A DNA stretch of 4,320 nucleotides from Escherichia coli (GTDB taxonomy: Bacteria; Pseudomonadota; Gammaproteobacteria; Enterobacterales; Enterobacteriaceae). Position numbers and translations under genes: made by a program. The notes beneath the pieces were generated by a model that was given only the letters and a program-made list of their open reading frames with translations, did not search any database and was not told where the DNA came from. The DNA is taken from NCBI RefSeq assembly GCF_003334315.1, contig NZ_QOWR01000100.1; one strand, 5' to 3'. Of this stretch, positions 1,161-1,764 are shown one piece after another; position 1 is the first letter of the stretch; each line of letters starts with the position of its first letter.

Positions 1161-1764
1161 GACTAACTCCTCTAAATCAGTTATCAGTGGCTGCTGCCAG
1201 TGGCGCTTTTGCATGTCTTTCCGGGTTGGACTCAAGATGATAGTTACCGGACAAGGCGCAGCGGTCGGACTGAACGGGGGGTTCGTGCATACAGTCCAGC
1301 TTGGAGCGAACTGCCTACCCGGAACTGAGTGTCAGGCGTGGAATGAGATAAACGCGGCCATAACAGCGGAATGACACCGGTAAACCGAAAGGCAGGAACA
1401 GGAGAGCGCACGAGGGAGCCACCAGGGGGAAACGCCTGGTATCTTTAAGTCCTGTCGGGTTTCGCCACCACTGATTTGAGCGTCAGATTTCGTGATGCTT
1501 GTCAGGGGGGCGGAGCCTATGGAAAAACGGCTTCGCCGCGGCCTTCTCATTTCCCTGTTAAGTTCCTTCTTGGCATTTACCAGGAAACTTCCGCCCTATT
1601 CGTAAGCCCGCACCGCTCGCCGCAGCCGAACGACCGAGCGCAGCGAGTCAGTGAGCGAGGAAGCGGAATATATCCTGTCTCATATATTCTGCTTACGCTC
1701 CGCTGCTGCATTTTTCTCCTGCCACATGAAGCGCTTCACTGATTCCCGCACCCGTGCCAACATA

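Follow-up and report, generated by a model that had tools for sequence, protein, structure and literature searches.

We found that positions 1612-1668 of the window, the 4,320-nt stretch of DNA analysed here, very probably carry on the + strand the ColE1-family single-strand initiation signal ssiA (also rriA or pas-BL), a primosome assembly site dependent on PriA (n', factor Y). The earlier note had suggested a primosome site with conserved lagging-strand priming. At the level of sequence comparison this reading is supported by the position of the element on the displaced strand, its presence in 54 of 57 origins, an island of conservation and a covarying hairpin. None of the four alternatives weighed below draws more than a slight share of support. 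The identification would be correct but ordinary, since it concerns a known kind of feature in an already known plasmid. Only the structural definition drawn from natural variation, a motif at a fixed distance and the occurrence of the module in IncX1 and IncX4 origins are mildly novel. The coordinates of the features are collected in Table 1.

Table 1. Features of the replication region and related copies in other plasmids.
Feature	Coordinates	Strand	Basis
RNAI antisense regulator	1022-1122	-	Rfam RF00106, 99.2 bits, E = 1.2e-18
Origin: RNA/DNA switch motif GGAAAAACG	1521-1529	+	homology with ColE1 and pMB1 vector
Hairpin element (block plus 2 nt); proposed PriA-dependent primosome assembly site	1612-1668	+	covariance model, pMB1/ColE1 identity
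Closing stem, 5' arm CCGCT	1613-1617	+	pairs with 1662-1666; A2 columns 2-6 with 53-57
Closing stem, 3' arm AGCGG, inside AAGCGG 1661-1666	1662-1666	+	A2 alignment and RNAalifold
Inner stem, 5' side CGAAC	1627-1631	+	pairs with 1651-1655; A2 columns 16-20 with 42-46
Inner stem, 3' side GTGAG	1651-1655	+	A2 alignment
Conserved TACGC motif, 28 nt after the hairpin	1694-1698	+	survey of downstream sequences
IncX copy, L004 (NZ_CP032386, IncX1/FII)	3001-3092		
IncX copy, L003 (NZ_MK836307, IncX4, mcr-1 plasmid)	3001-3092		
Further IncX copies: L005, L094, L095 (IncX1); L093 (IncX1 remnant in IncHI2 plasmid)			

Source plasmid and identity of the block

Several 4,245-bp plasmids are 100% identical to the window, which over its full length is also 99.9% identical to the Salmonella Enteritidis plasmid pK (NC_003456.1), a circular, mobilizable, ColE1-type plasmid whose genes include MobC-family, MbeB and MbeD genes. 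Positions 1-74 are identical to positions 4247-4320, indicating that the window wraps around a circle of 4,245/4,246 bp. We found no rop gene in pK. Two open reading frames with signal-peptide-like N-termini, both recorded as hypothetical proteins in plasmid records, were also observed: one at 275-862 on the minus strand (195 aa), with a lipobox-like ...AISGC, and one at 3772-4290 on the + strand (172 aa). A conservation island separate from the block, at 1766-1856, is common to ColE1 (taagccagtatacactccgctagcgctacgtgactgg...) and corresponds by homology to the oriT/bom region.

The 55-mer accgctcgccgcagccgaacgaccgagcgcagcgagtcagtgagcgaggaagcgga is present at 1612-1666 exactly as the earlier note quoted it. 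There it was described as almost identical to a segment of pBR322, and this was borne out: compared with our two reference sequences, the pUC-type, pMB1-derived vector record Z35638.1 and ColE1, the block is in fact 55/55 identical to the pMB1 segment (L006, 1944-1998; blastn E = 4e-20) and 53/55 (96%) identical to ColE1 (NC_001371, 1308-1364). The same block is present in a contig with the pBR322-type continuation ...GGAAGCGGAAGAGCGCCTGATGCGG (L038). A 161-nt query spanning the block and its surroundings retrieved more than 5,000 plasmid records, many of them matching only the block itself, which is far beyond chance. The plasmid records that we examined have no annotated feature under it. 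In the pUC-type record, a boundary ...gaagcggaagagcgcc|caatacgcaaaccgcc was found a few nucleotides after the block; given the way pUC was constructed, we take the sequence past ...gaagcggaagagcgcc to be lac-derived and the pMB1 part to end there. Between the switch and the end of this pMB1-derived part, the block is the only segment conserved in the family.

Allen et al. (PMC3167613) reported that two pMB1-origin constructs contain ssiA. From the switch onward the two have 419 nt in common, a stretch that takes in the lac promoter; ssiB is located farther down, and one of the constructs lacks it. The pas sites near the pBR322 origin can act as origins (PMC8246471), and replication from pMB1 sequence is PriA-dependent (PMC8246471; PMC3167613). 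We infer three things: the block is the mapped pas-BL/rriA, it is bound by PriA in pK, and its active strand is the + strand. The first of these draws on the presence of ssiA in the pMB1-origin constructs and on the apparent end of the pMB1-derived sequence just after the block. The mapped L-strand site presumably lies ~150 nt past the origin, and we found nothing that places the pBR322 pas sites elsewhere. The primary site-mapping papers are those of Zipursky & Marians 1980, Nomura, Low & Ray 1982 and Marians, Soeller & Zipursky 1982.

Position relative to the replication origin

RNAI is encoded on the minus strand, which places RNAII on the + strand and sets the direction of replication from left to right in window coordinates. 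This orientation identifies the + strand as the displaced, lagging-template strand. The switch motif GGAAAAAC|G was placed at 1521-1529 by alignment with ColE1 and the pUC-type vector. The exact switch point inside the motif is assumed from established ColE1/pBR322 knowledge, and C1528 was taken as +1 for all distances.

The start of the block lies at +85 in pK, +111 in ColE1 and +122 in the pMB1 vector, and the earlier placement of the block downstream of the origin, given RNAI on the minus strand, is thus confirmed. In pK, the block spans +85 to +139 and the 57-nt element +85 to +141, on the displaced strand of RNAII-primed synthesis. The spacer between origin and element (1529-1611) is shorter than its counterparts in ColE1 and pMB1.

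No DnaA box (TT[AT]TNCACA) was detected on either strand of the whole window, and pK contains no homologue of ColE1 1545-1660, the segment after oriT in which we presume the H-strand site to lie. Thus, the ssiA-type element is the only recognisable helicase-loading signal, and pK appears to carry only an ssiA-type site. A single-strand initiation signal of another type, either primase-only (G4 type) or DnaA-dependent (ABC primosome), is very unlikely to account for the block. The lack of a DnaA box in the hairpin or elsewhere in the window excludes the DnaA-dependent form. An origin of the G4 type requires three hairpins, whereas our data support a single long one. The block is also identical to pMB1 sequence whose replication is PriA-dependent (PMC8246471; PMC3167613). 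What speaks for another type is that the PriA dependence of the block is carried over by sequence identity, and that several types of ssi occur in plasmids, according to a preprint that cites Nomura et al. 1991 (bioRxiv 10.1101/2022.12.05.519187).

Conservation among ColE1-type origins

We surveyed ColE1-type origins by scanning one genome per species with an origin 25-mer alone and inspecting the sequence downstream, a design that avoids selecting on the block. Contigs starting like pMB1 vectors, which are common contaminants of unrelated genomes, were set aside, and 57 unique natural sequences remained. The element was present on the same strand in 54 of these, starting between +65 and +112 (median +85). 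Pairwise identity was 0.82 in the element and 0.60 and 0.62 in the 55-nt flanks, indicating an island of conservation.

Three natural plasmids (L035, L045 and L083) have no element at the usual position, and the covariance model described below found no match in their DNA examined. The element is likewise missing from the usual position in 11 of the 16 vector-like contigs. This indicates that the element is strongly conserved yet dispensable, and that it is not essential for replication. In two of the three natural plasmids without the hairpin (L035 and L045), the oriT block directly follows the origin.

Many exact matches to the origin 25-mer also occurred in assemblies of unrelated organisms: Streptomyces, Cutibacterium, Hymenobacter, Nitrospira and candidate-phylum MAGs (loci L008-L092). 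Beyond the match, the sequence is in some cases that of a pMB1 vector, a CMV enhancer or a tet operator and in others that of a p15A- or ColE1-type origin. Such matches have the appearance of vector or plasmid DNA contaminating public assemblies.

A covarying hairpin in the element

To describe the structure of the element, we aligned its 35 distinct variants (alignment A2). A covariance model built on these variants gave a single match in the window (81.9 bits, E = 3e-18). The 5-bp closing stem is paired in 100% of cells across the 35 variants, and three of its five pairs show compensatory changes (C-G to A-T or G-C, C-G to T-A, and T-A to C-G). In none of 500 shuffles were the observed values reached for cells paired, for pairs and cells changed on both sides, or for the covariation score; the number of further pair types was no different from that in the shuffles. 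Slid registers gave far lower values. RNAalifold predicted the same stem independently, and the stem lies inside the minimum-energy fold of 7 of 8 variants folded in isolation. The changes are found in different combinations in the Pantoea/Erwinia/Serratia-type, Rosenbergiella, L019, L040, L069 and L023 variants, indicating that they do not trace back to one inherited event.

The 3' arm of the closing stem falls within AAGCGG (1661-1666), the hexanucleotide common to n' sites in the literature of the early 1980s. In the Pantoea/Erwinia/Serratia-type variants AAGCGG is replaced by AGGCGT, with the 5' arm changed to match, and altogether 15 of the 35 variants have AGGCGT or AGGCGC in its place with a compensating 5' arm. 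This shows that AAGCGG serves as an arm of the stem and is no fixed word for recognition; what the family conserves is the pairing, not the word.

The inner stem also covaries. Elsewhere in the family it takes the forms CTCAC/GTGAG, CTCAT/ATGAG, CCCGT/ACGGG and CTTTGAA/TTCAAAG, and in Edwardsiella it is GATCGGA/TCCGATC around a longer insert. In pK, ColE1 and pMB1 its two central positions form tandem G.A/A.G in a pyrimidine-GA-purine context, a stable DNA mismatch motif. The unpaired runs CGCCGCAG and CGAGGA are almost invariant, as would be expected for recognition by a protein.

We found that the stability of the fold was unremarkable compared with shuffled sequences on either strand (z from +0.8 to -1.7), and folding energy was therefore set aside as evidence for or against a hairpin; covariation by itself carries the structure. 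An alternative hairpin pairing 1609-1619 with 1635-1645 was rejected: the T-to-C and C-to-G changes of the Pantoea type break it and are compensated in the closing stem. An apical 3-bp stem (A2 columns 21-23 with 38-40) had 50-70% of its cells paired in an ambiguous register and is not claimed. The two halves of a 13-nt inverted repeat at 1661-1673 and 1682-1694 (AAGCGGAATATAT / ATATATTCTGCTT) are 92% complementary, and the first half covers the closing stem's 3' arm. This repeat is specific to the pK/p15A-like subgroup and could compete with the closing stem.

Watson-Crick stems would form on either strand, which leaves room for a minus-strand element that primes the complementary strand on DNA entering a recipient during mobilization, and not the vegetative lagging strand. 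This is improbable, though the least so of the four alternatives. In its favour, the block lies only ~100 nt from the oriT/bom homology, and pK, having no homologue of ColE1 1545-1660, would need some other signal in recipients. The count of G.T versus A.C cells (9 versus 6) leaves covariation silent on which strand folds. However, the inner stem has 39 non-Watson-Crick cells that read G.A or A.G along the + strand and would read C.T or T.C along the other, so that the tandem mismatches would become pyrimidine-pyrimidine on the minus strand. This asymmetry is modest evidence that may favour the + strand as the one that folds. In addition, the copies of the block in IncX1 and IncX4 plasmids described below lie beside a vegetative origin, and the flanks shown have no annotated transfer genes; ssiA, the site nearest to the origin, has been assigned to the lagging strand (PMC3167613).

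Downstream motif and copies in IncX plasmids

Of 56 unique sequences downstream of the hairpin, 45 carry a conserved motif, [T/G]ACGC, between +21 and +30 (median 29), and those of IncX1 and IncX4 are among them; in shuffled sequences the count averaged 2.7 and never exceeded 8. The fixed distance suggests that the functional unit may run to ~1700, about 35 nt past the end of the block, and the TACGC of pK is possibly the 3' part of the functional site. CA[T/C] is often seen ~10 nt before the motif, which in the window reads ttacgc at 1693-1698.

IncX1 and IncX4 plasmids carry the same 57-nt hairpin with TACGC in their replication regions, surrounded by unrelated flanks. On one side of these copies lies stbDE (IncX1) or a J-domain gene (IncX4) and on the other the origin, with a pair of DnaA boxes ~110 nt further on. 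In the IncX1/FII plasmid (L004), the block at 3001-3058 is followed by DnaA boxes at 3171 and 3210, an AT-rich stretch, five 22-bp iterons at 3392-3512 and pir from 3762. R6K (IncX2, L096) has no copy of the element. We considered whether the matches in large plasmids were co-integrated ColE1 replicons and rejected this, their flanks being IncX1 or IncX4 backbone or, in the IncHI2 plasmid (L093), an IncX1 remnant truncated by IS26.

Finding the same block in unrelated flanks at IncX1 and IncX4 origins is as expected of a self-contained replication signal. It is possible, though we hold it doubtful, that the hairpin and [T/G]ACGC together (~90 nt) form a helicase-loading cassette that is portable and passes between unrelated types of replicon, namely ColE1-type and IncX1/IncX4 but not IncX2/R6K. 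If so, the origins of IncX1 and IncX4 plasmids, including the IncX4 backbone that carries mcr-1, would use a ColE1-type PriA-dependent priming site, and AAGCGG, the classical 'consensus', would amount to no more than one side of a stem that covaries. The IncX copies hint that PriA-dependent priming modules move between replicon types, and such mobility could be relevant to how epidemic resistance plasmids depend on their hosts. In the open-access literature, with the old subscription literature outside the search, we found no paper mentioning both IncX and primosome.

These copies also bear on whether the block, instead of working as single-stranded DNA, acts as RNA or duplex DNA, for example as a read-through structure of RNAII or as a signal for protein binding or transcription. 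Covariation is blind to the difference between an RNA and a DNA hairpin of the same sense. Against this, no promoter-like site (-35/-10 hexamers) or terminator-like site (G+C-rich hairpin followed by a T run) overlaps 1612-1700, the window contains no Rfam family besides RNAI, and the IncX1 and IncX4 copies sit in an intergenic origin region without RNAII. Together with the tandem G.A and the invariant unpaired residues, which fit a protein-recognised fold of single-stranded DNA, these observations make an RNA or duplex role still less probable than the alternatives above.

The least probable alternative of all is that the block has no function of its own and is conserved through recent common descent or recombination among enterobacterial plasmids. 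Many copies are indeed nearly identical, and both engineered vectors and the three natural plasmids replicate without it. But the conservation stands out from the flanks, compensatory changes occur in two stems, the position relative to the origin is fixed in diverged lineages, and IncX1 and IncX4 plasmids have independently retained the block.

Proposed mechanism

The preferred reading, a PriA-dependent primosome assembly site on the + strand, agrees with published accounts in which extension of the RNAII primer by Pol I exposes n'-pas/ssiA and the lagging strand is started by way of PriA (PMC3167613; PMC3640518); PriA is recruited first, then DnaB and DnaG (PMC3167613). Applied to pK, RNAII transcribed on the + strand from about 1019 would form an R-loop and be cut by RNase H at ~1527/1528. 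DNA polymerase I would extend the primer rightwards and displace the parental + strand. Once ~85-140 nt had been displaced, the segment would become single-stranded and could fold into an imperfect hairpin of ~57 nt, consisting of the closing stem, the inner stem with its tandem G.A and the invariant unpaired CGCCGCAG and CGAGGA. PriA would recognise this hairpin and, with PriB and DnaT, load DnaB from DnaB-DnaC onto the lagging-strand template. DnaG would then prime the lagging strand before Pol III holoenzyme takes over.

A structure-aware definition of the element, comprising the closing and inner stems, the invariant unpaired residues and [T/G]ACGC at +28/29, could be used to annotate a feature that usually goes unannotated.

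Comparison with known systems

We compared the element with the primosome assembly site of phiX174, a hairpin in SSB-coated single-stranded DNA that is recognised by PriA (PMC5778457). Both the phiX174 site and the pK block contain GAAGCGG, and as read from the sequence AGCGG pairs with CCGCT in both; it forms the 5' stem arm in phiX174 but the 3' arm in pK. The covariance model found no match in phiX174 (NC_001422, 2200-2500), in the F-G intergenic region where we take the phage pas to lie, nor did it detect another copy in ColE1. Similarity to those sites therefore cannot show that the element belongs to the PriA-site class.

The closest counterparts are pBR322 pas-BL and ColE1 rriA, which are the same as ssiA: relative to RNAII, the pK block occupies the same strand, and its distance from the switch is comparable. 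Unlike these, pK and its p15A-type relatives have the extra inverted repeat on the 3' arm. ColE1 and pMB1 have a DnaA box (ctgtggataac) between origin and element, whereas pK is without one. The second site of those plasmids, ColE1 rriB or pBR322 pas-BH (ssiB), is on the opposite strand and further downstream and belongs to the same functional class (PMC3167613; PMC8392549).

Finally, ssi-like palindromes are described in the pHW126-like plasmids pIGMS31 and pIGRK, and ssi signals in F, R6K, R100 and ColE2 (Nomura et al. 1991), in bioRxiv 10.1101/2022.12.05.519187. These belong to different replicons and, as described there, are like the pK element in being accessory, non-essential hairpins beside a plasmid origin.
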